Shown: piece by piece, positions 9,756-43,900 of the stretch | How the letters are laid out: the number at the start of each line of letters is the position of its first letter | How positions within the stretch are numbered: position 1 is the stretch's first letter | Assembly: GCA_963779415.1 (NCBI GenBank) | Contig: CAVZYA010000002.1 | Location: 1,024,001-1,088,000, forward strand | From: an uncultured Acidobacteriota bacterium | GTDB taxonomy: Bacteria > Acidobacteriota > Thermoanaerobaculia > UBA5066 | Length of the DNA: 64,000 nucleotides | Direction of reading: 5' to 3' | The notes under the pieces: model-generated | The model's database searches: none | What the model was told of the DNA's origin: nothing | Seen by the model: only the letters and a program-made list of their open reading frames with translations | Program-made: the position numbers and the translations under genes

Positions 9756-10924
9756 CACCCGACCCGGCGGAGGCCGTCCACGATCGGGCGGCGGGCGGAC
9801 TGAAATGCGGGAACGAGACCGGCGAGGACGCCGACGCCGACGGCGATGCCGAAGCCGAGGGCGAGCACCTCGGGGAAGAGGGTGAAGGTGGTCGCGAAGG
9901 CCGCCCCCGGCGTGTTCTGGAGGCCCCGCTTCAGGCCCGGCTCGAGAGCCGAGAAGAGGACGAGCCCGAGGATCCCCCCGACGAGGGAGAGCGCGAGGCT
10001 CTCCGCCAGGACGAGGCCGAAGACCGCTCCCTGCGTGTAGCCGAGCGTCCGGAGGACGGCGATCTCGGTCACCCGCTCGCGGGCCGCCATCGCCATCGTG
10101 TTGGCCGAGATCAGGAGGATGACGAGGCCGATCGAGATCCCGATCGCTCCGATCAGGAGCTTGACGTTCCCGAGCTGCTGGACGAAGCCCATCTGAAACG
10201 CCTTCTCGGTCTCCGTCTTCGTCGGGGCCGGGGAGTTTTCGAACATCGCGTCGATCTCCTGCGGCAGGCGGTCTGCGGCCGCCGCGCCCGCGGCCTTCAC
10301 GTAGACCGCCCCGGTCTGACCCGCCGTGGAGGGGAGCGCCTCCTCGAGGTATTTCCGGTTGAAGAAGATCGAGCGCGCGGTCCCTTTCTCCGGCAGGTCG
10401 AAGACGCCCCGGATCGTCAGCTCGAGGGTGACGGGATAGGCGTCGCCGACGAGCGTGATCTTCTGTCCCATCCGCCAGCCGTAGTTCCGGAACGAGTCGA
10501 TCCCGACGACGCACCCCGCCCGGTCCTTCAGCCACTCCTCGTTCGACCCTTCGAGGACCGTCGCGTCGTCGAACACCCTGAGGAACGTCTCCGGCTCGAC
10601 GGCGAAACGGGGAAAGAAGTTCTTCGCGCTCTTGTCGACGTACGTCCCGCCGAACCAGGTGAACTTCGTCGCCGCGACGACGCCGGGGAGGCGCGCGATC
10701 CGGTCCGCGTACGTGACGGGGATCGGAACGGCCAGCGAGACCTGGTGCCGGGTGACGAGCCGGAACATCCCCCGCGTCAGGGCGGGGTCGGGGCGCTCGA
10801 GCGCCCGGACGAACGTCGCGAGGAGGCAGATGACGAGGAGCGGCAGGACGACGGAGGCGACCGTGAGGGCCGTCCGCGTCCTCTTCCGGAGGACGTTCTT
10901 GAGGATGAACGGCAGGTACTTCAT
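9755..10924 (-). CDS. ABC transporter permease, MacB/FtsX family (paralog B)
   Basis: Starts MKYLPFILKNVLRKRTRT; NTMAMAARERVTEIAVLRTLGY. Confidence 0.92.
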   Translation of the reverse strand: MKYLPFILKNVLRKRTRTALTVASVVLPLLVICLLATFVRALERPDPALTRGMFRLVTRHQVSLAVPIPVTYADRIARLPGVVAATKFTWFGGTYVDKSAKNFFPRFAVEPETFLRVFDDATVLEGSNEEWLKDRAGCVVGIDSFRNYGWRMGQKITLVGDAYPVTLELTIRGVFDLPEKGTARSIFFNRKYLEEALPSTAGQTGAVYVKAAGAAAADRLPQEIDAMFENSPAPTKTETEKAFQMGFVQQLGNVKLLIGAIGISIGLVILLISANTMAMAARERVTEIAVLRTLGYTQGAVFGLVLAESLALSLVGGILGLVLFSALEPGLKRGLQNTPGAAFATTFTLFPEVLALGFGIAVGVGVLAGLVPAFQSARRPIVDGLRRVG

Positions 10925-12092
10925 CACGCAACCTGCCGGAGCCCGTCGGCGATCGACCGGGTGGAGGAGCGGACGGCGGGGACGATCCCGGCGACGAGGC
11001 CGACGCCGACGGCCACGGCGAACGCGAGGGCGAGGACCTCCGGGTAGACGTGGAAGGTCGCCGCGAGGGGCAACATCGGGGTCAACATGAGCTGATGTCT
11101 CAGGGGCGGCATGGCGACCACGAACAGCAGGATGCCGGAGACTCCGCCGGTGAGCGCGATGAGGACGCTCTCGCCGAGGACGAGGGCCAGAATCGTCGAT
11201 CTCCGGAAGCCGAGCGTCCGGAAGACGGCGATCTCCGTGATCCGCTCGCGCGCCGCCATCGCCATCGTGTTCCCCGCGATCAGGAGGATGACGAGGACGA
11301 TGACGGCGCCGATGGACGTCAGGAGGAGCTTCACGTTCCCCAGCATCGACACCATCCCGTTCCGGAAGGCGTTCTCGGTCTCCGTCTTCGTCGGGATAGG
11401 GAGAGTTTTCGAACATCGCGTCGATCATGGGTCCGAGGCGCTCCGAGGCGGCGGCGTCCTTCGCCTTGATCCAGATCGTGGAGACCGAGCCCTTGAAGGA
11501 CGGGAACCGCTCGTCGATGACCCGGCGGTCGAAGAAGAGGCTCGCCGACGTGCCGTTCTCGAGGTGGTAGAGGGCCCGGATCGTCAGCTCGAGGGTCATC
11601 GGGAAGACGTCTCCGACGAGCACGATCCGGTCTCCGAGCTTCCAGCCGTACCGGGCGGCGAGGTTCGTCCCGACGACGCAGCCGGTCCGGTCCGCCCGCC
11701 AGTCGCGTTCGGAGCCCTCGACGATCTCGGCGTCGTCGAAGACCTTCAGGAACGTCTCCGGGTCGACGAAGACCCGCGGGAAGGCGTCTCTTCGCTCCGC
11801 CGTCGCGATAACGGCCGCCGAAGAAATTGAAGTCGGAGACGGCTTCGACGCCCGGGAGCTGCCGGATCTTCTCCTCGTAGGCCGACGGCAGGGTGCTCAA
11901 AAGGGAGACGCGGTGGCGAACGACGAGCCGGAACGATCCGCGCACCGTCCTCGGGTCCGGCGCCTCCAGCGCCTTCAGGAAGGTCCCCATGAGGCAGATG
12001 ACGAGGAGCGGCAGGACAATCGACGCGGCCGTCAGGGCCGTCCGCGTCCTCTTCCGGAAGACGTTCTTCAGTACGAGGGGCAGGAACTTCAC
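10924..12092 (-). CDS. ABC transporter permease, MacB/FtsX family (paralog A; frameshifts near 11790 and 11395)
   Basis: GTG start VKFLPLVLKNVFRKRTRT; pieces in three frames colinear with the neighbouring paralogs. Confidence 0.87.
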
Positions 12093-12847
12093 GGACGCGG
12101 CTCGAAGCCGGCCGAGGCGGCGATGGCCGCGGCCATCCCGACCTCCTTCTTGTCCCCCTCGGCCCGGATGTCCTCCCTGAGGACCCCCTTGTCGAGGTGG
12201 ACGAGACGGTGGGCCCGGGCCGCGGCGCGCGGGTCGTGCGTCACCATCACGATCGTCTTTGCGAACTCGTCGTTGAGCCTCTCGATGAGGACGAGCACCT
12301 CTTCGGCACTCCTGGCGTCGAGGTCGCCGGTCGGCTCGTCGGCCACGAGGAGCTTCGGGTCGGTCGCGATGGCGCGCGCGATGGCGACGCGCTGCTCCTG
12401 CCCGCCCGAGAGCTGACGCGGGTAGTGGTCCATCCGGTCGGAGAGGCCGACGATCGAGAGGGCCAGCTCCACCTGCTTGCGCCGCCGTGCGCGGGGAAGG
12501 TCGGTCAGGAGGAGCGGCAGCTCGACGTTCTCGAACGCCGTCAGGACCGGGACGAGGTTGTAGAGCTGGAAGATGAAGCCGACGTTCCGGCTCCGCCACT
12601 TCGCGAGCCCCGCCTCGCCCATTCCGTCGATCTCCTTCCCCCCGACGTTGATCCGGCCCGAGGTGGGGCGGTCGATGCCGGCGATGAGGTTCAGGAGCGT
12701 CGTCTTCCCCGACCCCGACGGGCCCATCAGCGCGAGGAACTCCCCCGCGTCGACCGCGAGGTTCAGGCCCGAAAGGACCGTCAGCGTCTGCGTGTCGCGC
12801 TGGTACGCCTTGACGAGGTTCTCGATCCGGATGAACGGCTCGGCCAT
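12089..12847 (-). CDS. ABC transporter ATP-binding protein (LolD/MacB type)
   Basis: Walker A GPSGSGKT, LSGGQEQRVAIARA, ADEPTGDLD, VTHD. Confidence 0.96.
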   Translation of the reverse strand: MAEPFIRIENLVKAYQRDTQTLTVLSGLNLAVDAGEFLALMGPSGSGKTTLLNLIAGIDRPTSGRINVGGKEIDGMGEAGLAKWRSRNVGFIFQLYNLVPVLTAFENVELPLLLTDLPRARRRKQVELALSIVGLSDRMDHYPRQLSGGQEQRVAIARAIATDPKLLVADEPTGDLDARSAEEVLVLIERLNDEFAKTIVMVTHDPRAAARAHRLVHLDKGVLREDIRAEGDKKEVGMAAAIAASAGFEPRP

Positions 12848-12887
12848 CGCTCTCTCCTCCGCTACCGGCGCGGGGCGCCGGGGCGAT

Positions 12888-30168: not shown

Positions 30169-30612
30169 ATGCCCGAGAAGCCCCTGAGCTGCGTTCTCCT
30201 CGCGGACCGCCACCATGGCCTCACGGAAGGCGTCCGCGGGCTGCTCGAGACGGCGTTCGGAACGGTGGTCATGGTTGCCGACGAGGCGTCACTGCTGGAG
30301 GGGGCGGGCCGGCTGAGGCCCGACGTGGCGGTCGTGGATCTCTCGCTGGCAAGGGACAGCAGCCTGGGCTGGCTGCACGCGCTGAAGGACCGCTGTCCGG
30401 GTCTCAGGGTGATCGCCCTCAGCGTCCACGACGAAGCGAACATCCGCAGGGCGGCGCTCGAGGCGGGCGCCGATGCGTTCGTTCTGAAACGGGCGATCGT
30501 GACCGACCTCCTGCCGGCGGTCGACCGCCTCCGTGAGGAGGCCGAGGTGCCCTCGCCGGGGAGCGGAAGCGCGCCCGTTCCGGCAGGTGACGCGAGGAAG
30601 AACCCGCAATGA
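30169..30612 (+). CDS. Single-domain response regulator (atypical acidic pocket ADRH)
   Basis: VLLADRH, AVVDLSL, ALSVH, FVLKR. Confidence 0.85.
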   Translation: MPEKPLSCVLLADRHHGLTEGVRGLLETAFGTVVMVADEASLLEGAGRLRPDVAVVDLSLARDSSLGWLHALKDRCPGLRVIALSVHDEANIRRAALEAGADAFVLKRAIVTDLLPAVDRLREEAEVPSPGSGSAPVPAGDARKNPQ

Positions 30613-31374
30613 CGACGTCTTGCCGGAGCCTGCGTCGAGCCGTACTCGCGAGAGCGGCGGTCGCCTTGGCGATTTCTCTCATCGCATACCCCGCCGCCGC
30701 GGAGGACGACGCCTTCCGGAACACCGCCGAGATCTACCTGATGGCCCCGTCGATGTCGGGGACGGTCGGCTTCGGTCCGCTCGGTACGGAGATCGATGTC
30801 CCGTCCTCGAGGATCTTCGAGAACCTCAAGTTCGCGGTCCTCGCGGACTACCGGGGAGAGGCCCCGAAATGGGCCGTGGCGGCCGACGTCGTCTACATGA
30901 ACCTCGGGGGGAGCGGGACCGGCTCCCTGGACCGCGCCTCGGCCGACGTCGGCGTCGAGGAGTTCATCGTCGACCTCGCCGGGGCGTGGCGGTTCTCGAA
31001 GGCGTTCGAGCTTCTCGCGGGGGGGAGGTACACGCGGCTCCGGACGACCGTCACGTTGACGAGCCCCCTGAAAGTCCGCGACGCGAAGGTCGACGAGGAC
31101 TGGTTCGACCCGTTCGTCGGCGCCCAGGCGTTCCTGCCGCTCTCGAAGGCCCTCCTGCTCCAGCTCCGCGGTGATGTCGGCGGCTTCGGGGTCGGCTGCA
31201 AATTCACGTGGCAGGTGATGGCCCGCCTGAACTGGCAGGTCTCGCCGGTTCGTCCGCCTCGGCCTCGGCTACCGCTGGCTCGACCAGGACTTCGAGACGG
31301 GCTCGGGAGTCGACTACTTCCGATGGAAGGTCCTGACCTAGGGCCCGTTGATCGCGGCGGGCGTCACGTTCTAG
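30609..31374 (+). CDS. Putative outer-membrane beta-barrel protein (frameshift near 31250, in-frame TAG at 31339)
   Basis: Signal peptide, amphipathic strands, DWFDPFVG, LRGDVGGFGVG, GYRWL, terminal Phe (..GVTF*). Confidence 0.72.
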
Positions 31375-31499
31375 GAATTCGACGAGAAGGGGGGACCGCG
31401 AGGAGTGAAAGGAGATACGGAGTCATGACGAAGAAGACGAGCAAGAGCGGCGAACCGACCGCCTGTTCTCCCGGAGATCTCACGAGAAAGGAAATGACC

Positions 31500-32700
31500 A
31501 TGGCTGACAACGCGAAGCAGATCAAAGAGACCACGTTCGAAAACACGAAACTGAACCTCGTGAAGCTGGATTGGAAAGAGGTGTATTACACCAACTGTCC
31601 CCTCGTGTCCGCCAGCAACGTGGACCAGGAGCTGGGCTGGACGCGGGAGGAGTACAAGAAGATCGGCGTGAAGTACGCCTTCCTGCGCTCGACCCGCGAG
31701 AACGACTGGTATCCGCACTACATCCACAATCTCGACAACCTCATCCGCTTCGGCGGGCTCTTCCCGCCCGTCCAGGTTCACGCCGACATCCGCAGGACGA
31801 GGCTCCTGGGCGTGACGCACGTGCCGCGCGAAGGTGGCGTCATGATGGTGCGCGCCAAGGACGACATCTACCGGATGAGCGATCTGAAGGGGAAGAAGAT
31901 CGGGCTCTCGAAGAGCCTGAACCGGGTCAAGAACGACTGGTGGCGCATCCAGGAGCACCAGGGCATCGAGCTGATGCTCCGGTTGCACGGCATGACCATG
32001 AAGGACATCGAACTGGTGGAGTTCCCCTACGCGGATGACTGGTACAACGATCCGAAGATGCTGGATCCGATGGAGAATCCGTCCGAATTGTGGCTGAAGC
32101 GCGACCACAAGCGCGACCTCGCCTTCCGTCCGTTGGAAACGGCCCTGGAAAAGGGCGTCATCGATGCGCTCTATTGTCAAAGCAAAGTGTTGAGCGTTCT
32201 CGCCGAGGCAACCGGCAACTTCGTGTCCATTGAGGATTTGTCGAGGTATCCGGACTGGCGCCTGCAGGTGGCCAACATCCCGGCCGCGATCACGTGCAGC
32301 GACGTGATGGCCGAGAAGCACCCCGAGCTGGCCGTCACGTTCATGAAGGGCATGATCAAGGTGGGGCGCTGGGCCAACGAGCACAAGCACGCGGCGGCGG
32401 CGATCCTCGACAAGCAGACGTTTTACCTCGACGTCGAGGACACCTACCGGGGCATCAGAGACGTCGACATGGTGCCCAACCTGTCGCCGCAGAACCTGGC
32501 CTCCGTGGAGATCGGGAAGAACTTCATGCTGAAGCATGGCTACATCAAGCGCGACTTCGACGTGCAGAAGTGGGCGGCTCCGGAGTTTCTCGAGCAGGCG
32601 GCGCGGGAGCTCCTCGAAGCGCAGTGGAAGAAGACGACCACGGCGAAGCTCCCCGCGACGACTGAGCTGCAGGCGGCTTCCGCGGCGGGTCGGCTCGAGT
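31500..32700 (+). CDS. DszB-like (2'-hydroxybiphenyl-2-sulfinate desulfinase / SsuA-fold) protein; stop obscured by errors
   Basis: YYTNCP, PHYIHNLDNLIRFGG (H-x9-R-F-G-G), RTRLLG, DLKGKKIGLS match the DszB pattern; no signal peptide. Confidence 0.8.
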
Positions 32701-32718
32701 CGGAAGGGAGACAGATCC

Positions 32719-34416
32719 ATGAAAGTCATCATCGTGGGCGGAGTGGCGGGCGGAGCGTCGTGCGCGGCGCGGCTGCGCCGGCTGGACGAGAAGGCCGAGA
32801 TCGTGATGGTGGAACGCGGGCCGTACCTCTCATACGCCAACTGCGGGCTGCCGTACCACGTCTCGGGCGTGATCGCCGAAGGAGTCGAGCCTCCTCGTGG
32901 CCAACGAGCAGTACTTCAAGGCGAACCTCGGCGATCGACGCGCGGACGAACTGCGAGGCGGTCTCGATCGACCGGAAGAAGAAGACCGTCGGCCTGAAGA
33001 ACGTCAAGACCGGCGAGGTGACGACGGAGAAGTACGACAAGCTCGTCCTCTCGCCCGGGGCGCCTTCGGTCCGTCCGCCGCTTCCGGGGATCGACCTGCC
33101 CGGGATCTTCCAGGTGCGGACCGTGCCCGACGCGCGGGCGATCAAGGAGTGGATCGAGAAGGGGACGGTGTTCCTCGCCGGAATGTCCAACTACTCCGGG
33201 ATCCAGTTCGTCAAGCCGCCACGGCGCGCCGTCGTGATCGGCGGCGGGTTCATCGGCCTCGAGACGGCGGAGAACCTGATCCACGCGGGGTTCGAGGTGA
33301 CGCTCGTCGAGATGCTCGACCAGGTCCTCGCCCCGCTCGACCGCGAGTTCGCCCACCTCGTCGAGGAGCACCTGAAGAGGCACGGCATGACGGTCGCCCT
33401 CGGCGACGGCGTGGCCGGATTCACGCAGCTGGCGGGGGGCGCGATCGAGGTGAAGACGAAGTCCGGCAAGACGTACCCGGCCGACGTCGTGATCCTCGCC
33501 CTCGGCGTCCGGCCGGACACGACGCTCGCGAAGGCCGCCGGGCTCGAGATCGGCGAGCGCGGAGGGATCCGCGTCGACGACCAGATGCACACGAGCGACC
33601 CGGACATCTTCGCCGTCGGCGACGCCGTCGAGGTCAAGGACTGGGTGACGGGGCAGTGGAGCCTCGTGGCGCTCGCCGGGCCGGCGAACCGGCAGGGGCG
33701 GATCGCGGCCGACGTGATCGCCGGGCGCAAGTCCCGCTACCGCGGCACGCAGGGGACCTCGATCATCGGGCTCTTCGGCGGCGCCGCCGCCTGGACCGGC
33801 GTCAGCGAGAAGACGCTGAAGAAGAGCGGCGACACGGACTACGAGAAGATCTACATCTTCCCGAACTCGCACGCCGGCTACTACCCGGGCGCCAGGCTGA
33901 TCGGGCTGAAGTTCATCTTCCGGAAGTCCGACGGGCGGGTCCTCGGGGCGCAGGCGATCGGCGAGGACGCACCGGCGGTGGACAAGCGGATCAGCGCCCT
34001 CGCGATGGCCCTCCAGATGAAGGCGACGATCTACGACCTCGAGGAGGCCGAGCTCTGCTACGCGCCCCAGTTCGGCAGCGCGAAGGACGCGGTGAACTTC
34101 GCCGGGATGGTCGCGGCGGACGTCCTCCATGGGGACATGCCGCTCGCCCACTGGGACGAGACGAGAGGCGCGTTCCTCCTCGACGTGCGCCTGCCGGTCG
34201 AGCTCGTCGTCGAGAGCGTCCCCGGCGCCGTCAACATCCCGCTCCACCTGCTCCGCGCCCGCCTCGGCGAGGCTTCCGAAGGACCGGGAGATCCTCGTCA
34301 TCTGCCGCTCCGCCCAGCGCGCCTACTACGCGACGCGGGTCCTCCTGCAGAACGGATTCAAGGCCCGGAACATCTCGGGCGGCATGCTGTCGCGGGCCAT
34401 GCTTTCACCGCAGTAG
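32719..34416 (+). CDS. CoA-disulfide/persulfide reductase with C-terminal rhodanese domain (Cdr/Npsr type), frameshifted
   Basis: IIVGGVAGGASCAARLRR, SYANCGLPY redox Cys, IGGGFIGLE, FAVGD, ELCYAPQF, rhodanese ICRSAQRA. Confidence 0.92.
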
Positions 34417-34449
34417 CAAGACACTGAACAAGGAATAGGAGAACAAACG

Positions 34450-36870
34450 ATGACAACCGCAGCTGCTTCCGAGAAGAGCACCACCGGCCGCGTCAAGGCC
34501 GACAGCGCCCGGATCGACCGGCTGAAAGAACAGCTCCTGAGCACGCCTCAGGCACTGGACAACGAGCGGGTCCGGATCATGGCGGAGGTCTACGAGGGAA
34601 CCGCCGGATACCAGCAGATCATCCGCAGGGCCAAGTTCTTCTCCGAGCTGATCGAGAGGAAGAAGCTCTACATCGACGAGAACCTCATCGTCGGCAGCAT
34701 GGCGAGCAGCGTGAACGCCGTCTACACGTACCCGGAGTGGAACGTGGAGTGGATGAAGGCAGAGAAGACCGTCGAGAAATCGAAGACCCCGGAAGACCGC
34801 AAGGCGAACCAGTGGGCGCTCGAGTACTGGGACAAGTGGGCGCTGCGCCCGCGGGCCGACGAGATCTTCATCAAGAAGTACGGCTTCGATCCGGACCCGG
34901 TCTACAAGGCGGGCCTCATCGCCGAGTTCATGTCCTGGCCAGGTGGCGGAGGCAACCTCAACTATCCCCGGGTCTACCGGGAGGGCCTCGCCAGCATGAT
35001 CAAGGAGGTCGAGGAGCGGCAGAAGGCCCTCGACATGCGGCTGCCGAACGCGCCCAAGTTCTACTTCTACGAGGCCTGCCTGATCACGATGACGGCCGTC
35101 ATCCGGCTGGCCAACCGCTACGCCGAGCTGGCCCGGGAGATGGCGGCCAAGGAGAAGAACGCGGACCGCAAGGCCGAGCTCATTGGCATCGCCGAGACCT
35201 GCAAGTGGGTGCCTGAGCATCCTGCCCGTAATCTGAGAGAAGCGATCCAGGCTCATTTCTTCTGTCATATCTGCGCAGAGATCGAGCAGGTGGGTTGCGG
35301 CTACTCGGAGGCCTACCTGGGCCAGAACCTCGAGCCGTTCTACCAGCGTGACAAGGCCGCGGGGCTGATCGGTCCCGATGAGGCGACCTACCTGCTGCAG
35401 CTGCTCTTCGTCAAGCTGAACGAGATCGGGTACTACTACGGAGAGCAGGTGGCTCTGCAGAACTCCGCCGACCTTGGCCAGAGCATCACGGTCGGCGGCT
35501 ACACCGAAGACGGAGACGATGCCACCGCGGAGATGGACTACAACATTCTCGACGCCGCGAAGTACCTGAAGCTGCCCCAGCCGCCCCTCTCCTGCTGCTA
35601 CACGGAGAAGATGAGCGGCAAGTTCCTGGAGAAGGTCCTCGACGTCATCGACACCGGCGTCGGCATGCCGCAGTTCGTGAACGGCGACGTGATGATCAAG
35701 CGGGCCCTCAACCTCTTCGCAGGGAGCAAGAACGGTCTCACGCTCGAGAAGGCACGACGGACCTGTATCGGCGCGTGCGTGGGAAGCTACATCCCGTACG
35801 AGACCGGGCATCCGGTGGAGGGGCAGCCGAACCTCGGAAAGGTCCTCGAGCTGACGCTGAACAACGGCTTCGACCCCCGGACCAAGGTGCAGATCGGCCC
35901 CAAGACCGGGGATCCCGAGAAGTTCAAGGACTTCGAGGAGCTGTACGCGGCTTTCGAAAAGCAGCTCCAGTTCTGCGAGGACACGCTCCGCCGCGAGGCA
36001 TGGATCGCGAGCATCCTCTGCGCCGAATACCTTCCCGTCGCCTGGCGCTCCATCCTGACGAAGGGGTGCATCGAGAGCGGAACCGAGGTCTGGAACGGCG
36101 GCGCCAACTACTACACGGTTGCCCAGATCACCGTCGGTGGCGTGGACGCCGCCAACGGGCTCATGGCGGTGAAGAAGCTGGTGTACGACGACAAGAAGCT
36201 GACGATGGCCGAGCTGAAGAAGGCGCTGGCGGCGAACTTCGAGGGCGAGTACGAGAAGGTCCGGAAGCTCTGCTACGAGGCCCCCAAGCACGGAAACGAC
36301 ATCCCCGAGGTCAACAAGTTCGTTCGCCGTGTGTACAACTCCATCTTCCAGGCGTTCCAGAACGTGGACGGCGGCGGTAACTACATCAGCCCGGACATCA
36401 GATCGGCCCCCGACTCCTACACCAAGAGCATCCACAACCTGATGGGTCTGGTGACGGGCGCCCTGCCGACCGGCAAGAAGGCCGGCGTAGCCCTCTGCGA
36501 TGGCAGCCTGTCCGCCATGCCCGGCACCGACGTCAACGGGCCGACCGCGCTGGTCATGTCCGCGGCAAAGGGCGCGGACGCGGTCAAGTTCACCGCGACG
36601 CACATGAACATGAAGCTCCCTCCCAACCAGCTCAAGACCCGCAAGGGCCGAGAGACCCTGCTGAACCTCGTCAAGACCTATATGGACAACGACGGCTATC
36701 ACATCCAGTTCAACGTGCTGGACACCAACATCCTGAAGGACGCGCAGAAGCACCCGGAGAAGTACCGCGACCTGGTCGTGCGGGTGGCGGGGTTCAGCGC
36801 CTTCTTCACGAAGCTGCACCCGGGTGTGCAGAACGAGATCATCGCCCGCACCGAGCAGAGCTTCGGTTGA
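34450..36870 (+). CDS. Glycyl radical enzyme of unassigned specificity (806 aa)
   Basis: C-terminal HIQFNV...LVVRVAGFSAFF (Gly781), Cys loop TCIGACVGS (Cys443), VPEHPARN, ITVGG, PKHGND. Confidence 0.95.
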   Translation: MTTAAASEKSTTGRVKADSARIDRLKEQLLSTPQALDNERVRIMAEVYEGTAGYQQIIRRAKFFSELIERKKLYIDENLIVGSMASSVNAVYTYPEWNVEWMKAEKTVEKSKTPEDRKANQWALEYWDKWALRPRADEIFIKKYGFDPDPVYKAGLIAEFMSWPGGGGNLNYPRVYREGLASMIKEVEERQKALDMRLPNAPKFYFYEACLITMTAVIRLANRYAELAREMAAKEKNADRKAELIGIAETCKWVPEHPARNLREAIQAHFFCHICAEIEQVGCGYSEAYLGQNLEPFYQRDKAAGLIGPDEATYLLQLLFVKLNEIGYYYGEQVALQNSADLGQSITVGGYTEDGDDATAEMDYNILDAAKYLKLPQPPLSCCYTEKMSGKFLEKVLDVIDTGVGMPQFVNGDVMIKRALNLFAGSKNGLTLEKARRTCIGACVGSYIPYETGHPVEGQPNLGKVLELTLNNGFDPRTKVQIGPKTGDPEKFKDFEELYAAFEKQLQFCEDTLRREAWIASILCAEYLPVAWRSILTKGCIESGTEVWNGGANYYTVAQITVGGVDAANGLMAVKKLVYDDKKLTMAELKKALAANFEGEYEKVRKLCYEAPKHGNDIPEVNKFVRRVYNSIFQAFQNVDGGGNYISPDIRSAPDSYTKSIHNLMGLVTGALPTGKKAGVALCDGSLSAMPGTDVNGPTALVMSAAKGADAVKFTATHMNMKLPPNQLKTRKGRETLLNLVKTYMDNDGYHIQFNVLDTNILKDAQKHPEKYRDLVVRVAGFSAFFTKLHPGVQNEIIARTEQSFG

Positions 36871-36881
36871 CATTCAGCGGA

Positions 36882-36918
36882 GCCGGTACAGTGGGGCGGC
36901 CCGCCCCGCCGTACCGGC
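36882..36918 (+). terminator. GC-rich stem-loop directly after the GRE gene (terminator or mRNA-stabilising hairpin)
   Basis: gccggtacagtggggcgg-c-ccgccccgccgtaccggc followed by ccattctt; weak U tract. Confidence 0.6.
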
Positions 36919-37027
36919 CCATTCTTCACGAGCAGCCCGGCACGGTTGGACGAAGGACGACGACGGACAGCGACCGCACGAACACGAGAGGCAATTTGTG
37001 ATCAAAGAGATCGGCCATGGGAGTTTC

Positions 37028-38173
37028 ATGAGACGCATCGCAATCAACGTCGGCGCTGGCTACGTCCCGGGGCTGAATGCCGTGGTCAAGGGCGCGGCCC
37101 TGGCGGCGGGCAGGATGGGATGGGAGATCGTCGGCATCCGGGACGGATTCGACGGGCTGCTGCACCCGGAGCGCTACCCGGACGGCGGCCTGCTGACCCT
37201 CAGCCCCGAGCTGGTCGAGAACATCGATCCGGCCGGCGGGGGCTTCCTGGGCCAGTCGGGCCGGGTCGACCCGTTTCACGTCCGCCGGGTCAACGAAGAC
37301 GAGATGGTCGAGGAAGTCGACATGTCCGACGAGCTCCTTGCCGCGTTCCGGAAGGAGCAGCTCGATGCGCTGATCTCCGTCGTCGGGGGGCGCGGGCTGA
37401 GCATCCTCTACAAGCTCCACCGCAAGGGGCTCCATACGGTCTGCGTCCCCCGGTCGATCGAGAACGACATCGCCGCGACCGCGGTCTCTTTCGGCTTCAA
37501 CAGCGCGCTCAGCTTCACCATCGAGATGCTGGACCGGGCCCGTCAGGCGGCCCAGGCGGCCCGCAAGATCGGGGTGGTGGAGGTCCTGGGAGAGCAGTCC
37601 GGGTGGGTAGCGCTCCAGGCTGCCATCGCCGTCTGCGCCGATGCGGTCCTGATTCCCGAGATCCTCTGCGACCTCAAGGTGGTGGCGTCGCGGCTGAAGG
37701 ACAAGGTGTCGCTCCGGAGGCCGTACGGCCTGGTGGTGGTGGCCGAAGGGGCCAGGTTCCTCGAGACCTCGAAAGCCGAGGCGAAGCCTTCCTCCCTCAA
37801 GGCCTCTCTGTCGCCGCTGGCGACCGGGGATGCCAGCGAGCACGTCATCCACAGGTCGGGTCAGGCCGCCGAGAAGGTGGCGAACGGGCTGCAGCTTCTG
37901 CTCGCCGAGGAAACCTATCCGCTCGTCCTGGGGCCCTGGGTCAGGGGCGGCACTCCGACCGCGGTCGACCGCCAGCTGGGCCTCGGTTACGGGGCCGGAG
38001 CCGTGCGCGCCCTGAAGGCCGGCAAGAACGGGATGATGGTGGCGTTCGTTCCCCCGGACATGAAGTTCGTGCCGCTGACGGAAGCGATCAACAAGGTCAG
38101 GACCGTACCTGCGGACAGCGAGTTCATGCAGATCGCCCAGAGCCTCGGCATCTGCCTCGGGAAGGAGCTGTGA
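37028..38173 (+). CDS. PfkA-fold protein with substituted catalytic motifs
   Basis: Overall PfkA layout (PGLNAVV, GIRDGFDGL, VVVAEG, RGGTPT..DR) but GGRGL, PRSIEND and EVLGE replace GGDG, PKTIDND and EVMGR. Confidence 0.85.
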   Translation: MRRIAINVGAGYVPGLNAVVKGAALAAGRMGWEIVGIRDGFDGLLHPERYPDGGLLTLSPELVENIDPAGGGFLGQSGRVDPFHVRRVNEDEMVEEVDMSDELLAAFRKEQLDALISVVGGRGLSILYKLHRKGLHTVCVPRSIENDIAATAVSFGFNSALSFTIEMLDRARQAAQAARKIGVVEVLGEQSGWVALQAAIAVCADAVLIPEILCDLKVVASRLKDKVSLRRPYGLVVVAEGARFLETSKAEAKPSSLKASLSPLATGDASEHVIHRSGQAAEKVANGLQLLLAEETYPLVLGPWVRGGTPTAVDRQLGLGYGAGAVRALKAGKNGMMVAFVPPDMKFVPLTEAINKVRTVPADSEFMQIAQSLGICLGKEL

Positions 38174-39135
38174 TGAGCACGCCCGTGAACCCATCCGCTC
38201 CGACCGGCTTCGTTCTGAACATCCAGCGCTATTGCAGTCACGACGGCCCGGGTATCCGCACGAACGTATTCCTCAAGGGTTGCTCGCTCCGCTGCAAGTG
38301 GTGCGGCAACCCCGAGAGCATCGCCTTCAAGCCCGAACTCTCCTACGACCCCAGGAAGTGCACCGGCAGGAAGGAATGCGGCGTCTGCCTGAAGCCTCCC
38401 TTCCCGGAAGGCGCCTTCTATGTGCCGGAAAACGCTGCCGACGACAAGGTCAAGGTCAACTGGGACCTGGCGACGGGCTGCGACGAGGCGATGGTCGCGC
38501 TGTGCGAGCCGGGCGCTCTCGAGATGTTCGGCAAGCGAATGACGGTGGACGAGGTCCTGGACGAGGTAGAGAAGGACAGCTCCTTCTACCGGAACACCGG
38601 GGGTGGCATGACGCTGAGTGGCGGCGAGTGCCTGCTGCAGCCGGACTTCGCGGCCGCCCTGCTGAAGGGGGCCCACGACCGCGGCTTCAACACGGCGATC
38701 GAAACGGCGTGCAACGTTCCCTGGGCGTACGTGGAGAAGGTGCTGCCCCACGTCGATACCGTCCTCCACGACCACAAGATGACGATCCCGGAGCGCCACA
38801 AGAAGTGGGTCGGAGTGAGTAACGAGCGGATCCTCACGAACTTCAAGAGAGCCTACGAGACGTTTCCAAACGCGGACTTCATCGCCAGGACGCCGCTGAT
38901 TCCGGGCATAAACGCCGACGAGGAGCACATCCGGGCCGTCCTGGCGTTCATTCGCCCGCACAAGAACGTCATCGACTACGAGCTGCTGCCGTACCACCGC
39001 TTCGGCCTCGGCAAGTACGAGCTGCTGGGCGAGGTGTACGAGCTGGACGACTACAAGACGCCGTCGGACGACTTGGTCAAGCACCTCCAGGCCATCATCG
39101 ACGAGGCCTTCGGCCGCAGCGGAGGCACCAAGTGA
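38173..39135 (+). CDS. Glycyl-radical enzyme activating enzyme (radical SAM)
   Basis: HDGPGIRT, CSLRCKWC (CX3CX2C), NPES, SGGE, IETA, LLPYH; TGATG-coupled to upstream gene. Confidence 0.96.
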   Translation: MSTPVNPSAPTGFVLNIQRYCSHDGPGIRTNVFLKGCSLRCKWCGNPESIAFKPELSYDPRKCTGRKECGVCLKPPFPEGAFYVPENAADDKVKVNWDLATGCDEAMVALCEPGALEMFGKRMTVDEVLDEVEKDSSFYRNTGGGMTLSGGECLLQPDFAAALLKGAHDRGFNTAIETACNVPWAYVEKVLPHVDTVLHDHKMTIPERHKKWVGVSNERILTNFKRAYETFPNADFIARTPLIPGINADEEHIRAVLAFIRPHKNVIDYELLPYHRFGLGKYELLGEVYELDDYKTPSDDLVKHLQAIIDEAFGRSGGTK

Positions 39136-40280
39136 CACCTAACGAAGACATCTACGAAAGGCTGGCGGCGGCGCTGGAGGCGCTCCCGCACGGCTTCGCC
39201 CGCACGCCTTCGGGCGTGGAGATCAAGTTGATGAAGAAGGCCTTCACGGAGGAGGAGGTCCGGTTGGCCGGCCAACTCACCCGCACCCCCGAAACGGCTG
39301 CCGAGATCGCCAAGCGGTTGGGCCGGGATGTGGCCGAGGTCACCGCGCTGCTCGAGAGGCTGATTCCGCTGGGCCTGGTCTCGCTTCCCGGAAACACGGC
39401 GGGGGGGGGCGTTCTGAAAGAGGAAATGAAAGGCGAGAGGAGATACCGGCTGCGCCCGTTCATGGTGGGCTGGTACGAGGCCGGCATGCGCCGCCTTGAC
39501 AAGGAGTTCGCCGAGCTGTTCGAGCAGTTCATCACCGAAGGCGGGGGCGAGCGTGTCTTCGCGCCGCGACCGGGACTGCTGGGCGTGGTGCCGGTGCGAG
39601 GTTCGCTCAAGCCCGAGTATGTCAAGCGCGAGCCGCATATAGACATTGACGCCCACTTCCAGCGGCACGAGCGCTTTCTCGTCATCCCCTGCGTCTGCAA
39701 ACGGGAGCGGGAAGTCCTGGGGGACTCGTCCTGCGGGAAGCCCATGAAGCGTTGTGGATTCGTGGGACTGCCGCCCCAGACCCCGCTGGGCGAGACCGTG
39801 CTGGGCCGGGAGGAGGCGTCCAAGCTCCTCACCGAGCTCGGCGAGCAGGGTCACGTCAACCTCGCGTTCTACGGCTTCACCATGTTCGCGGATGCGCCGC
39901 AGTTCATGGGCACGTGCAACTGCTGCTCCTGCTGCTGCGGGATACTCCACGGCCCGAAGCTGGCCGGCCTGGAGTCCCACCAAGGGCCGCAGCCGTCGAA
40001 CTTCCGCGCTGTCATCGACCCGGAGGCGTGCATTGCATGCGGCGTCTGCCAGGAGCGTTGTCCGGTGGACGCGATCTCCGACATCACGGAGCCGGGCCCG
40101 ATCGAGGGGAAGTCACGCGTAGAGCGGGCAAAGTGCATCGGATGCGGAGTGTGCGTGATCGGCTGCGCATCCGACGCGATTGTGATGGAGCCGGTCTCCC
40201 CGGAGGAGTGGTTCCACGTCCCCTCCAGCATGGCGGAGTGGGAAGAGATGCGGCTGAAGAACTTGGCGTCACAGAAATGA
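39132..40280 (+). CDS. Multi-Fe-S protein (N-terminal wHTH-like region, Cys-rich middle, C-terminal 2x[4Fe-4S])
   Basis: PCVCKR, CNCCSCCC, CIACGVCQERCP, CIGCGVCVIGC. Confidence 0.88.
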   Translation: MTPNEDIYERLAAALEALPHGFARTPSGVEIKLMKKAFTEEEVRLAGQLTRTPETAAEIAKRLGRDVAEVTALLERLIPLGLVSLPGNTAGGGVLKEEMKGERRYRLRPFMVGWYEAGMRRLDKEFAELFEQFITEGGGERVFAPRPGLLGVVPVRGSLKPEYVKREPHIDIDAHFQRHERFLVIPCVCKREREVLGDSSCGKPMKRCGFVGLPPQTPLGETVLGREEASKLLTELGEQGHVNLAFYGFTMFADAPQFMGTCNCCSCCCGILHGPKLAGLESHQGPQPSNFRAVIDPEACIACGVCQERCPVDAISDITEPGPIEGKSRVERAKCIGCGVCVIGCASDAIVMEPVSPEEWFHVPSSMAEWEEMRLKNLASQK

Positions 40281-41086
40281 GCGGGTGCAGCGCCCTCCTC
40301 TCTGGTCTTGCCATCCTCCTTGCCGCGGCCTTGCCCGCTCCGGTGAGCGCCCAGACTCAAGCGGAACCCGGCGGAGTGACGGCCCAGACGGAGGCCGACG
40401 CGAACAACCCCCTCGCCAAAGTCCAGGCATTCAACCTCCACGACTACTACGTCCCGACGCTCTCGGAGACTCCGGACCAGACCGCCAACACGTTCTGGCT
40501 CCGGTACGCACAGCCGGTTGGAGGGTTCCTGATCCGGGCGTCGCTGCCGCTGTCCCGGGTACCGGCGGGCGACGGCACCACGACGTCCGGGCTCGGCGAC
40601 TTCAATGCCTTCGCCGCCTACCTGTTCGACACAAAGCCGGGAGTGAGCTTCGGCCTGGGGCCGCAGGTGACGGCCCCCACCGCGACGGCTCACGAGACCG
40701 GGACAGGGAAGTGGCAGGGCGGCCTCGCCGCGGTCTACTTCGACGCGACGTCGCAGAGGGTCCAGTGGGGCGGGCTCGTCACCTGGCAGGCGGACTTCGC
40801 CGGCCCTTCCAACCGGCCCGGTACGAACGTCCTCGCCGTCCAGCCCTTCTACTTCATCCAACTCGGAAAGGGACTGTACGTGAGGAGCACGGCGGTGATG
40901 GCCTTCAATCTGGAGAATGGCTCGTACAACGTGCCCGTCGGCCTCGGCCTCGGCATGGTGATCCCGGCGGGCCGGACGGTCCTCAACGCGTTCGTGGAGC
41001 CGCAGTTCACGGTTCTTTCGCATGGCCCCGGCCAGCCGGAAGTGCAGATCTTCGTCGGCCTTAACACGCAGTTTCTGAAGAAGTAG
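40277..41086 (+). CDS. Putative outer-membrane beta-barrel/transporter protein
   Basis: Signal peptide, ANNPLA, SGLGDF, GLGPQVTAPTA, TGKWQGG, NVPVGLG. Confidence 0.75.
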   Translation: MSGCSALLSGLAILLAAALPAPVSAQTQAEPGGVTAQTEADANNPLAKVQAFNLHDYYVPTLSETPDQTANTFWLRYAQPVGGFLIRASLPLSRVPAGDGTTTSGLGDFNAFAAYLFDTKPGVSFGLGPQVTAPTATAHETGTGKWQGGLAAVYFDATSQRVQWGGLVTWQADFAGPSNRPGTNVLAVQPFYFIQLGKGLYVRSTAVMAFNLENGSYNVPVGLGLGMVIPAGRTVLNAFVEPQFTVLSHGPGQPEVQIFVGLNTQFLKK

Positions 41087-41106: not shown

Positions 41107-41991
41107 ATGTCGACCACCCTGACGCTCCTGTTCAAGATCACACTGGCGATCTTCATGGCGGGCAGCCTGCTGGAGATGGGCCTCCGGCTCAACCTCCAGG
41201 AGGCCTTCCGGGGGCTTCGCAACGTGCGCTTCGTGGCCTACACGCTGGTCTGGAGCTTCGTCCTCGTCCCCGCCCTCGCCTACGGGATCACACTCGTCAT
41301 CCCGCTGCAGGCCCCCTATGCCATCGGCCTCGTCCTTCTGGGCATGGCGCCCTGCGCGCCCTTTGTCCCCGGCCTCGTGGACAAGGCCAAGGGGGACCTT
41401 GGCTTCACGGCGGCCTTCATGCTCCTCGCCTCGGTCGGCACCGTCGTGTGCATGCCCTTTACGGTGCCTCTTCTCACCACGGGCCTGACCGCCAGCGCCT
41501 GGGCGATCGCCAAGCCCCTCCTGATCGTCGTCCTCCTGCCCATGGCAATCGGCGTCATCATCCGTCGTCAGGCGGATGCCTTCGCCTCCAAACTGCTCCC
41601 CTTCGCGAAGAAGCTCGCAGGGATCTTCGGCCTCCTCTGGTCCGTCCTGTGCCTCGTCATCTACGGGAAGGGCCTGCTCGGCGTGGCGGGCGAGTTCGCC
41701 CTCGCTTCGGAACTTCTCTTCTTCTGCGTGATCTTCCTGGGCACCTACTGGCTGGGCTTCGGCCTGCCCTATGAGCAGAAGATCGTGCTGAGCGTCGGGG
41801 TCACGACCCGGAACCTCGGCGCCTGTCTCACGCCGCTCCTCTCGGTGCCGGACATGGACCAGCGGGCCACGCTCATGATCGTGCTGGCGCTCCCCATCAT
41901 GGTCATCGTCTCGTTGCTGGGGGCGAAGTGGCTGGGCCCGGCGGCCGAACCGGGGTCCAAGACACCTGCGCCCGACCAGGCAAGTGCTTGA
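41107..41991 (+). CDS. Bile acid:sodium symporter (BASS/SBF) family transporter
   Basis: MGLRL, FVLVPALAY, GLVLLGMAPCAP, KAKGD, TRNLG; about 9 TMs. Confidence 0.88.
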   Translation: MSTTLTLLFKITLAIFMAGSLLEMGLRLNLQEAFRGLRNVRFVAYTLVWSFVLVPALAYGITLVIPLQAPYAIGLVLLGMAPCAPFVPGLVDKAKGDLGFTAAFMLLASVGTVVCMPFTVPLLTTGLTASAWAIAKPLLIVVLLPMAIGVIIRRQADAFASKLLPFAKKLAGIFGLLWSVLCLVIYGKGLLGVAGEFALASELLFFCVIFLGTYWLGFGLPYEQKIVLSVGVTTRNLGACLTPLLSVPDMDQRATLMIVLALPIMVIVSLLGAKWLGPAAEPGSKTPAPDQASA

Positions 41992-42082: not shown

Positions 42083-43900
42083 ATGAGTGAAGGTGCTCCC
42101 GGCGTGCTTGCCATGATCAGCTGGCCCCGCCCGTTCGTGGGACTCCGGGGCATCAGGCTGGCCGACGTCCCCCGCGAGGTCTCGGCGGGCGTCACGCTGG
42201 CCGCCCTCATGATCCCGCTCAACATCGGTTACGCGCAGGTGGCCGGCCTGCCGCCCGTGGCCGGCCTCTACGCGGCCATCATTCCCCTGGCCGTCTTCGC
42301 CCTGCTGGCGAGTTCGCGCCACCTGGTGACGAGCCCCGACGCCTCCATGGCCACCCTGGTCGGTGCCACTCTGGTCGCCTTCGCTGCGCCCGGAGACCCG
42401 TTGCGCCTGCAGTACGCCCTCGCCCTGGCGATGGTCTGCGCGCTGCTGTTCTTCCTCTTCTGGATTTTCCGGTTGGCGTTCCTCGCCAACTTCCTGTCGC
42501 GCGCCGTGATGGCGGGGTTCATCACCGGGCTCGGGGTCGAGGTGTTCACGAACCAGGTGCGAAAGATCCTCGCCGCCCCCCACGTGGCGGGCGCCGCGAC
42601 AGGCGTGCTGGCGGCGGCCGAACGGATCAAGGACGTCATGGCGAGCTCGGTGAACACCGAGGGCTACTTCGTGGAGGTCGTCGCCCTGATCCACTCGATC
42701 CCCCGGGCCAACCTTTACTCGGTGGCGATCGGCGTCGCCGCCTTTCTGACCGTCCGCCTTCTCAAGCGCTTCGCGCCCAGGATCCCGGGGGCGCTGGTGG
42801 CGCTGGGGGTGCTCACGCTCGCCGTGGCTTACTTCAACCTCGCCCAAAAGGGGGTCGGCGTCCTCGGCGCGATTCCCTCGGGTCTTCCGACCCTGACCCT
42901 GCCGGCCATCCCTGCCGCCGACTACCTGAGGCTGTTTCCCGGCGCCATGGCGATTGTGGCGATCCTGCTGTGTGAGGGCCTGCTCGTGGTCCGCAGCTAC
43001 AGCAGCAAGTACGGATACAAGGCGGACGGCGATCAGATGTTGTTCGCCTACGGCGCGGCAAACCTCGCGGCCGGGTTTACCGGCTCGCTACTGACCGGCA
43101 ACAGCCCCTCCCGCTCGGCAGCGATGGACTCCTCGGGAGCGAAGAGCCAGCTGCCGAGCCTGGTGGCGGCCGGGACGATCGCCGTGGTCATGCTGTTCTT
43201 CACCGACATGCTCGCGTACCTGCCGAATGCGGCCCTGGCGGGGATCGTCGCCAATGCGGTGCTCTCCCTGATCGAGGTCCACGAGCTCGGCGAGCTGTGG
43301 CGGATGCGGCGTTCGGAGTTCTGGATCGCCGCCACCTGCCTCCTGAGCGTGCTGGCTCTGGGGCCGCTGCGCGCCGTCCTCATCGCCTTTCTCCTGTCCA
43401 CGATCGACGTCATCCGGCGGGCGTCCCGCCCGGAGACGGCGGCGCTGCTCGAAGCCGCGGACGGCAGCCATTTCGCCGCCACGGACCTGGGCCAGGGCGT
43501 CAGTCCGTCGGGCCTGGTCGTCTATCGGTTCGGCGCCCCGCTCTACTTCGCCAACGCGACCCTGTTTCTCGACGAGGTCGAGCAACTGATCGCCCGGGCG
43601 CCGACCCCGGTCCGCTGGTTCGTGCTGGACGCGCAGGCGATGGTCGACGTCGACACCACCGGCGCGGAGGTCCTTCGGCAGGCAATCACCTTGCTGACCG
43701 GGCGCGGCATCGTCTTCGCCGTCAGCCGCGCCGATCGGTCCTTCCGCTCCTGGCTGGAGCGATACGGGCTCATGAAGCTGATTGACCAGAAGCGCTTCTA
43801 CCCGACCAACCGCCACGCCGCGGCGGCGTTTCGCGAGGACTCGGGGCGCGAGGCGGAGCCGCCCGGAACGGCCTCGCCGCCTCTCCCTCAGGGTACGTGA
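42083..43900 (+). CDS. SulP family anion transporter with STAS domain
   Basis: AGVTLAALMIP..GYAQVAGLPPVAGLYA, GAKSQL, GAPLYFANA, VDTTG. Confidence 0.95.
   Translation: MSEGAPGVLAMISWPRPFVGLRGIRLADVPREVSAGVTLAALMIPLNIGYAQVAGLPPVAGLYAAIIPLAVFALLASSRHLVTSPDASMATLVGATLVAFAAPGDPLRLQYALALAMVCALLFFLFWIFRLAFLANFLSRAVMAGFITGLGVEVFTNQVRKILAAPHVAGAATGVLAAAERIKDVMASSVNTEGYFVEVVALIHSIPRANLYSVAIGVAAFLTVRLLKRFAPRIPGALVALGVLTLAVAYFNLAQKGVGVLGAIPSGLPTLTLPAIPAADYLRLFPGAMAIVAILLCEGLLVVRSYSSKYGYKADGDQMLFAYGAANLAAGFTGSLLTGNSPSRSAAMDSSGAKSQLPSLVAAGTIAVVMLFFTDMLAYLPNAALAGIVANAVLSLIEVHELGELWRMRRSEFWIAATCLLSVLALGPLRAVLIAFLLSTIDVIRRASRPETAALLEAADGSHFAATDLGQGVSPSGLVVYRFGAPLYFANATLFLDEVEQLIARAPTPVRWFVLDAQAMVDVDTTGAEVLRQAITLLTGRGIVFAVSRADRSFRSWLERYGLMKLIDQKRFYPTNRHAAAAFREDSGREAEPPGTASPPLPQGT

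Follow-up and report, generated by a model that had tools for sequence, protein, structure and literature searches.

In a 64,000-nucleotide (nt) stretch of genome from an uncultured Acidobacteriota bacterium (contig CAVZYA010000002.1 of assembly GCA_963779415.1, positions 1,024,001–1,088,000; hereafter the window), a gene for a protein of phosphofructokinase (PFK) fold lies between the genes for a glycyl radical enzyme (GRE) and its radical S-adenosylmethionine (SAM) activase. We call this protein, encoded by the open reading frame (ORF) at 37028–38173 (+), PFKL. PFKL has the fold of a PFK, but the Asp that binds Mg and the Asp of the ATP loop are both missing, as are three fructose-6-phosphate-binding residues, and its gene is obligately linked to activase genes, lying directly 5′ of them and usually overlapping them. 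We consider it reasonably likely that PFKL is a fixed protein partner of the GRE activase and no longer phosphorylates fructose-6-phosphate. Rather than working in glycolysis, it probably assists or regulates the activase as a subunit without kinase activity.

A phosphofructokinase fold with altered kinase motifs

The arrangement of the genes is as a preliminary description of this DNA had read it. PFKL (37028..38173, +) translates to 381 amino acids (aa) without an internal stop, and is nested in a longer ORF that starts at 36824. Database annotation gives a 391-aa form from the GTG at 36998, and the ATG at 37028 is preceded, 4 nt 5′, by GGGAG. The stop TGA (38171–38173) shares its A with the activase ATG at 38173, forming the coupling sequence TGATG (38171..38175, +); an alternative activase start, GTG 38170, gives a 4-nt overlap with PFKL. 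Pfam finds PFL-like and Gly_radical domains upstream (34450–36870), and Radical_SAM and Fer4_12 domains in the downstream ORF. Pfam PF00365 matches PFKL residues 3–329 over its whole 277-position profile (E 3.2e-59; 201 bits, cut-off 30.9), and the top Foldseek matches of the AlphaFold2 monomer model (predicted local distance difference test (pLDDT) 75.7) are all PFKs (best 1zxx, E 4e-25). PFKL contains Cys only at positions 139, 203, 214 and 376, and no CxxC motif.

The kinase motifs are degenerate. In PfkA, Asp103 of GGDG binds Mg, Asp12 of GGD belongs to the ATP loop and Asp127 of T-I-D-N-D is the catalytic base, while fructose-6-phosphate is bound by R162, R171, R243, H249 and R252. HMMER alignments of PFKL to two solved PFKs, from E. 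coli (1pfk) and L. delbrueckii (1zxx), confirm all five motif changes that had been listed from the sequence: GAGYVPG is aligned on SGGDAPG, GGRG on GGDG, PRSIEND on PGTIDND, GFNSA on GFFTA/GYDTA, and LGE on MGR. The reference form quoted earlier for the third motif, PKTIDND, is that of the nearest canonical relatives of PFKL. The alignments add two changes to that list, R243 to Y297 and H249 to P303. Within the fructose-6-phosphate set, K180 and E189 further replace R162 and R171, and R306 (R252) alone is kept. PfkA R72 is likewise retained (as R79). At the position of the catalytic base PFKL has E145 for Asp127, with S143 for T125.

PFKL falls below the cut-off of every NCBIfam PFK model. 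The best-scoring curated model is that of the ‘mixed’ PFK group, TIGR02483 (241 bits, cut-off 430.6), followed by NF002872 (213, cut-off 253), NF010674 (203, cut-off 544) and TIGR02482 (148, cut-off 371); the models for pyrophosphate (PPi)-dependent PFKs score far below their cut-offs. PPi-PFKs are marked by an Asp at position 104 and a Lys at position 124, and the PFKL family has neither (G123 and R142, each in 75 of 75 sequences).

To place these changes in the family we used 80 genome loci (L001–L080) from a scan of one genome per species, whose PFKLs are 56–96% identical to that of the window; the closest relative, L001, is at 96%. A word-indexed search with PFKL returned 4989 relatives, and the best 120 are all full length and 79–100% identical. 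The record labels of the 80 loci include Acidobacteriota, Actinomycetota, Planctomycetota, Verrucomicrobiota, Chloroflexi, Nitrospirae, Gemmatimonadota, Ignavibacteria, Calditrichia, Kiritimatiellia, Cyanobacteria, Flavobacteriaceae and alpha-, beta-, gamma- and delta-proteobacteria. The window and 74 of the 80 loci form a 75-sequence alignment; six loci were dropped, their best high-scoring segment pair either falling short of residues 3–374 or bearing a stop.

Across these 75 sequences, position 12 (PfkA Asp12) is F in 42, Y in 31 and H in two, and position 122 (Asp103) is R in 41, Q in 30, P in two, and A and E in one each, but never Asp. Position 142 (Gly124) is always R, and position 145 (Asp127) is E in 70 and D in five. 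N146, D147, N158 and W304 are each found in all 75. The positions that would contact the sugar phosphate are less uniform: position 189 (Arg171) takes ten different residues, position 297 (Arg243) is Y, F, K, Q or others, and position 303 (His249) is P in 62, L in eight, S in three and A in two, with no His. Position 306 (Arg252) is R in 74 sequences and K in one. In total, 70 of the 381 columns are invariant. Relative to PfkA the family has two insertions, 84–103 (with invariant R86, E96 and D98) and 243–290, and both contain invariant residues of their own. The ratio of nonsynonymous to synonymous changes (dN/dS, Nei-Gojobori) has a median of 0.168 over the 1469 of 2775 pairs with dS between 0.1 and 1.5, and is 0.119 between the window and L001. 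Because the substitutions recur in 74 orthologues, they are neither chance nor sequencing error. The alignment indicates that the motif losses are old, common to the family and maintained, and that new constraints have been gained. The preliminary description had asked whether orthologues share the substitutions under purifying selection; every member of the alignment does (75 of 75; median dN/dS 0.17).

The family appears to have arisen once. An exhaustive profile-free search gave 6714 representatives, and from the best 150 we compared the 76 that are 320–450 aa long. Nine of these are close to PFKL and degenerate (P0123, P0125, P0127, P0128, P0130, P0131, P0133, P0135 and P0136) and four scattered representatives are also degenerate; the remainder have the motifs GGGD, GDG[ST], KTDND, MGR and RHLR. 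In a quick IQ-TREE tree of 68 rows, from which nine partial rows had been dropped, the window’s PFKL and seven degenerate representatives (eight of eight close degenerate sequences) form one clade with a Shimodaira-Hasegawa-like approximate likelihood ratio test (SH-aLRT) support of 100 and a stem of 0.95 changes per column. This clade is nested among canonical K-T-D-N-D PFKs, and the four scattered representatives are placed elsewhere. Its members are marked by an aromatic residue at position 12, S-x-E-N-D for T-I-D-N-D and a GGDG loop devoid of Asp, all of which PFKL shows. The tree therefore resolves the PFKL family as one clade, with a single origin from PFKs of the K-T-D-N-D type. Neither close homologues with canonical motifs nor lineage-specific decay was found (75 of 75 substituted, dN/dS 0.17, one clade).

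The source genome encodes three other PF00365 matches, all with canonical motifs (340, 286 and 169 bits), so glycolysis does not depend on the PFKL gene. Two of these domains share one 1022-aa open frame (G000:C1:84131-86149; L081 and L082) and themselves begin with TSGGDAPGMN; the tandem is reminiscent of the arrangement in eukaryotic PFK-1. A separate copy of PPi type, with the motif GGGPAPGIN, lies at C1:89943-90902 (−). The description of PFKL as a pseudokinase or neofunctionalised PFK-fold protein is thus upheld by the substitutions in all 75 members, the low dN/dS (0.17), the clade with SH-aLRT 100 and the three other PF00365 copies available for glycolysis.

Linkage to the activase and a modelled complex

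An activase gene lies within 600 nt downstream of PFKL in 77 of the 80 genome loci, and the contigs of the remaining three stop 0–2 nt past PFKL. Of 73 loci, 55 have an in-frame start codon for the activase that overlaps the stop codon of PFKL (48 by 4 nt and seven by 1 nt), a count biased toward overlap by our rule of picking the start nearest that stop. The GRE is less tightly linked to PFKL than the activase is: 79 of 80 loci have a GRE gene 5′ of PFKL in the same orientation, with a spacer that is typically 73–230 nt and exceeds 600 nt in 11 of the 79.

The same linkage extends to distant members. When six distant degenerate representatives were aligned and used to scan metagenome contigs, 80 loci were returned, 13 of which contain degenerate copies (16 genes). 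The activase is directly downstream in 12 of these 13, and the thirteenth contig is 1170 nt long. The other 67 metagenome loci, with canonical PFKs, serve as a control: none has an activase or a GRE in the retrieved DNA (0/67).

Several loci place PFKL in other contexts. In L086 (5944–10705) the order is regulators, PFKL, activase, an AhpD/CMD-like protein and a permease, and the DNA covered there, 6 kb on the upstream and 2.7 kb on the downstream side, showed no detectable GRE. L089 reads SDR, PFKL, activase, CMD. The PFK-like genes of L086 and L089 are more distant degenerate forms, with the motifs GGGY / PTSVEND and LGGY / PASVEND. In L057 (4192–9131; labelled Microcoleaceae cyanobacterium) PFKL is 67% identical to that of the window while the upstream GRE is merely 31% identical, which argues that the PFKL–activase pair is combined with different GREs.

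Some loci contain a second PFKL. In seven of the 80 a paralogue (58–71% identical) follows the activase, directly before a homologue of the winged helix-turn-helix (wHTH)/4Fe-4S protein described below. These are L007, L016, L027, L038, L041, L044 and L045 (about 10150–12860), and second paralogues also occur in L088, L091 and L093. L088 is ordered sigma-54 activator, ABM, GRE, PFKL, activase, second PFKL, ferredoxin-domain protein. The window has no second paralogue; there the activase stop overlaps the GTG of the ferredoxin-domain protein (39132).

A reverse search with the GRE found it in four of 401 genomes sampled from the phylum of the window, and in none of three genomes of its family. 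PFKL and the activase lie 3′ of the GRE in all four. In one of the four, L167 (G389:C4:526278-531662), PFKL is split over several frames (five separate hidden Markov model hits), which may reflect a broken gene or assembly indels. A distribution that is patchy within the phylum yet covers many phyla is as expected for horizontal spread of the island.

Complex prediction, with our own alignments of 37 activases and 42 PFKLs as inputs, supports a direct interaction. Three runs of activase with PFKL gave an interaction prediction score from aligned errors (ipSAE) of 0.62, 0.67 and 0.66 (median 0.66), and the best of three controls reached 0.01. The mark against which this score is read is reached by 58 of 80 solved complexes and two of 110 mismatched pairs, a calibration that is approximate here given the use of our own alignments. 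The runs have at least 73% of their contacts in common, with a partner pLDDT of at least 82. No PFK–radical-SAM complex is among the PDB sequence matches to PFKL, so that a memorised answer by the predictor is unlikely.

In the model PFKL binds the activase 1:1. The PFKL contacts are residues 81, 83, 86, 88, 91–96, 122–123, 125–126, 128–129, 351, 354–357 and 359, and those of the activase are residues 37–40, 51, 80, 83, 85–87, 94, 96, 98–99, 101, 181–183, 214–216 and 218–219. PFKL 79–84 and 120–129 align to PfkA 72–77 and 101–110, a region that we take to be the ATP-binding face, and PFKL 85–97 forms a family-specific β-hairpin in the monomer model (strands 85–88 and 94–97). The PFKL side of the predicted interface would thus comprise the former ATP face (the GGRG loop and the next helix, 122–129), the hairpin 85–97 and a C-terminal segment, 351–359. 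On the activase side, contacts 37–40 lie between the first two Cys of C37x3C41x2C44 and contacts 80–101 within the Cys-bearing ferredoxin-like insert, so that PFKL is predicted to cover both the CX3CX2C cluster loop and the insert.

If this geometry is correct, PFKL may stabilise, shield or gate the activase near its Fe-S clusters, and might control how electrons or the GRE reach it. The modelled interface leaves the former sugar-phosphate pocket free, and there R142, N146, D147, T151, N158, E185 and W304 are invariant and R306 is kept; this pocket could bind a small anionic ligand and couple activation to that ligand. Of the three roles offered as examples in the preliminary description, an accessory factor for activation fits best, given a gene fixed to that of the activase and a controlled complex prediction that supports binding (ipSAE 0.66 against 0.01). 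A metabolite sensor may still be entertained because the former sugar pocket is conserved, and a kinase for a non-sugar substrate is the least favoured.

A bolder form of this proposal, which we hold tentatively and regard as rather unlikely, makes PFKL a working control element of radical-enzyme activation beyond a scaffold. The remodelled nucleotide site and the former sugar pocket would bind a ligand and gate or supply the electron that starts glycyl-radical formation. The nucleotide site (its GxGxxxG and GG[RQ]G loops) would then sit against the radical-SAM cluster loop and the auxiliary-cluster insert, and the ligand might be a nucleotide-type cofactor or an anionic sulfur metabolite. If so, PFKL-type proteins could form a general class of ferredoxin-domain-binding adaptors, an idea prompted by the pairing of a PFKL paralogue with the wHTH/4Fe-4S protein in seven of 80 loci.

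Several observations weigh against PFKL as a partner of the activase. In neither protein does the interface stand out by its conservation: randomly chosen residues were at least as conserved on average in 1310 of 10 000 draws for PFKL and 7116 of 10 000 for the activase. Part of the PFKL interface (79–86) has a pLDDT below 50 in the monomer model, and the binding itself is a prediction that the model supports rather than shows. Moreover, E145-N146-D147, the invariant R142 and the conserved R79 and R306 together resemble an anion-binding, possibly catalytic, pocket.

This last point leads to the alternative that PFKL has kept an enzymatic activity, as a phosphotransferase or another kind of group-transfer enzyme that has changed its donor and also its substrate, the latter probably being an anionic organosulfur compound, and that it acts on the substrate or product of the GRE. 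The acidic pair E145/D147, the retained N146 and the position of R142, at the place of the PPi-PFK Lys, would suit such a role, as would the strongly purifying selection and the sulfur enzymes and anion transporters of the island. We nonetheless judge it unlikely. The Mg-site Asp is present in none of the 75 sequences and the ATP-loop Asp is replaced by an aromatic residue, the would-be substrate-phosphate positions 189 and 297 vary freely, and the activase covers the former ATP face in the model. PFKL also tracks the activase and not the GRE, including at loci with another GRE (L057, at 31%, and L087) or with none detected (L086), and a PFKL paralogue is paired with a ferredoxin-domain protein.

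Slightly less probable again is a structural subunit of the GRE itself, comparable to the β and γ subunits of benzylsuccinate synthase (BSS) or the γ subunit of 4-hydroxyphenylacetate decarboxylase (HPAD). The tight, overlapping junction of PFKL with the activase gene contrasts with the loose spacing from the GRE (73–230 nt typically, above 600 nt in 11 of 79), the L086 pair has no detected GRE in the 6 kb of upstream and 2.7 kb of downstream DNA covered, and the activase complex passes its controls. These points outweigh the placement of the gene between GRE and activase, with a same-strand GRE 5′ of PFKL in 79 of 80 loci and PFKL after the GRE in all four GRE-positive genomes of the phylum sample. 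The two partnerships could both be true.

We think still less of a ligand-sensing regulator that could work without stably binding the activase, such as a switch, allosteric or transcription-independent, for a glycolytic or sulfur metabolite, and consider it improbable. Regulatory copies of the PFK fold provide a precedent, and the conserved former sugar pocket is free of the modelled interface; translational coupling and strict adjacency to the activase nevertheless point to a stoichiometric complex, and the family-specific hairpin lies within the modelled interface. A decaying or mis-assembled glycolytic pfk gene, a thought raised by 1-nt indels relative to the closest relative in neighbouring genes of the window, is the sole alternative that we exclude, given the intact frame at 96% identity to L001, the same substitutions in 74 other loci of many phyla (dN/dS 0.17), and the invariant residues and two conserved insertions gained by the family.

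The glycyl radical enzyme and the surrounding island

The GRE (34450..36870, +; 806 aa; Pfam and NCBIfam, PFL-like and Gly_radical) has the glycine motif RVAGFS at residue 778 and the Cys loop IGACVGS at residue 440. Its best PDB match is HypD (6vxc, 425 bits), and it scores below the cut-off of all equivalog NCBIfam models. RVAGFS is present in 76 of 77 GRE orthologues. The Cys loop has the form G[AG]CV[GP][SC] and is free of Glu in 68 of 69, and most orthologues have a second Cys four residues earlier. GRE 1,2-eliminases carry Cys-x-Glu in this loop (GCVE); the loop without Glu therefore indicates that the window’s GRE is not a standard 1,2-eliminase.

The activase (38173..39135, +; Radical_SAM and Fer4_12) exceeds the cut-off of TIGR02494, the general model for GRE activases (313.9 bits, cut-off 174.35). 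Its highest-scoring model is HpsH NF048010, at 344 bits and under the cut-off of 430. It contains the cluster motif C37x3C41x2C44 and a ferredoxin-like insert with C63, C69, C72 and C111.

The 157-nt spacer between the GRE and PFKL folds with a minimum free energy of −63.3 kcal/mol (z −2.43), and a GC-rich stem-loop lies directly 3′ of the GRE stop (36879..36920, +). This stem-loop may keep the amounts of PFKL and activase below that of the GRE. A terminator scan of 34300–40400 did not score it as a terminator, and found only three terminator-like sites, all on the minus strand and fewer than expected from shuffled sequence; a sigma-70 promoter scan of the same interval found no promoter-like sites.

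Downstream of the activase lie a protein with a wHTH domain and two 4Fe-4S ferredoxin motifs (39132..40280, +), whose GTG overlaps the activase stop (GTGA), and a 259-aa ORF (40285–41064, +) that has no match in Pfam or NCBIfam and whose homologues in L001, L012 and L020 are 52–68% identical. These are followed by two transporters identified by Pfam, one of the SBF/BASS family (41107..41991, +) and a SulP-family anion permease with a STAS domain (42083..43900, +).

Upstream of the GRE, a single 1272-aa ORF (30609–34427, +) had been read as an N-terminus of no assigned function joined to a CoA-disulfide-reductase-like (CoADR-like) protein. This reading is wrong: three genes are run together, encoding an uncharacterised protein of about 210 aa, a DszB-like protein and the CoADR-like protein, which in L001 occupy three frames with stops between them. 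Window and L001 differ by single-base indels in this region. The DszB-like (sulfinate desulfinase-like) protein (31494..32700, +; about 396 aa, cytoplasmic) has an uncertain end owing to an indel relative to L001. It has a weak NMT1 match alone in Pfam, and aligns with DszB (PDB 2de2) at E 9.5e-12 (residues 31–369 against 23–360). Its Cys35 aligns on DszB Cys27 and the H...RFGG stretch is conserved, residues that we take to be functional in DszB. Homologues 60–95% identical occur in 33 of 80 loci. The CoADR-like flavoprotein (32719..34427, +) has homologues in 45 of 80 loci; compared with L001, its frame shifts after about codon 53, the first ∼53 codons (ATG 32719, MKVIIVGGVAGG...) being out of frame with the remainder; the break is either a real frameshift or an assembly error.

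A rhodanese-domain gene lies near the module in 27 of L001–L080 and a SAM synthetase gene in ten, both rough counts from stop-to-stop ORF clusters. An all-against-all clustering of the ORFs of the 80 loci merged adjacent genes and was used solely to choose extra neighbour families for Pfam. On the strength of the DszB-like, CoADR-like and rhodanese proteins and the SBF and SulP transporters, the gene content of the island points to anaerobic organosulfur chemistry. Literature searches linking DszB with a glycyl radical found nothing, and those pairing glycyl radical with Acidobacteriota sulfonate, with rhodanese or sulfate permease, or GRE sequence similarity network with accessory returned nothing relevant.

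Relatives of the island occur in public sequencing runs. None of the runs matched half of the query words. Contigs of two sediment RNA libraries (from one study) and two DNA runs, 88–99% alike, cover 30 of 30 bins of 34000–40400. These are contigs of relatives, and DNA may be present in RNA libraries; they are hence neutral on transcription and habitat.

Significance and comparison with known systems

In the usual view, a radical-SAM activase and a general reductant are all that a GRE requires, apart from small GRE-binding Fe-S subunits in a few cases. If PFKL is a partner of the activase, an entire enzyme fold from glycolysis has been recruited as its obligate companion. The system occurs in more than a dozen phyla, in bacteria from soil, peat and sediment, and has apparently spread by horizontal transfer. 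Should activation depend on PFKL, this large orphan GRE family could not be reconstituted from GRE and activase alone. PFKL genes are also annotated as 6-phosphofructokinase, which inflates the glycolytic capacity inferred for metagenome-assembled genomes. The DszB-like desulfinase, CoADR-like flavoprotein, rhodanese and anion transporters offer a concrete lead to anaerobic organosulfur chemistry. The canonical-PFK control (0/67), the complex model with its controls and predicted interface, and the presence of a DszB-like gene nearby are new here. Literature searches covering freely accessible papers found no PFK-like protein reported with a GRE or an activase, and a GRE–activase system with a PFK-fold pseudoenzyme partner seems to be undescribed in the searched literature.

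Among known GRE systems, the closest in type are the 1,2-eliminases HypD (6vxc), glycerol dehydratase (1r8w), IslA (7kq3) and HpsG/HpsH. The window’s GRE is likewise PFL2-type; it differs in scoring under all equivalog cut-offs and in its Cys loop without Glu (68 of 69 orthologues). We know of no PFK-like gene in any of these systems, and met none in the literature searched. The β and γ subunits of BSS and the γ subunit of HPAD are small Fe-S proteins that bind the GRE; as proposed for PFKL, they are extra non-catalytic proteins, encoded within a GRE operon and required beside GRE and activase. Unlike them, PFKL is 381 aa long with a PFK fold, four scattered Cys and no CxxC, and both the complex model and synteny favour the activase as its partner.

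Among PFKs, the mixed-substrate group (TIGR02483; GGGD, GDGS/T, PKTIDND, MGR, RHLR) is of the same fold and length class and supplies the nearest canonical relatives, 35–42% identical. In comparison with these enzymes, PFKL lacks the Asp of both GGD and GGDG, carries the changes T125S and D127E, and no longer has R171, R243 or H249; two insertions (84–103 and 243–290) are conserved in its family, and its gene is linked to an activase where none of the 67 canonical loci is. Non-catalytic copies of the PFK fold are known from the C-terminal half of eukaryotic PFK-1 and from the regulatory subunit of plant PPi-PFK, both of which regulate another PFK domain. PFKL resembles these copies as a duplicated fold that has lost its catalytic residues and was probably kept for a binding or regulatory role. 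Unlike them, this bacterial protein stands by itself, is linked to a radical-SAM activase and lies outside sugar metabolism.

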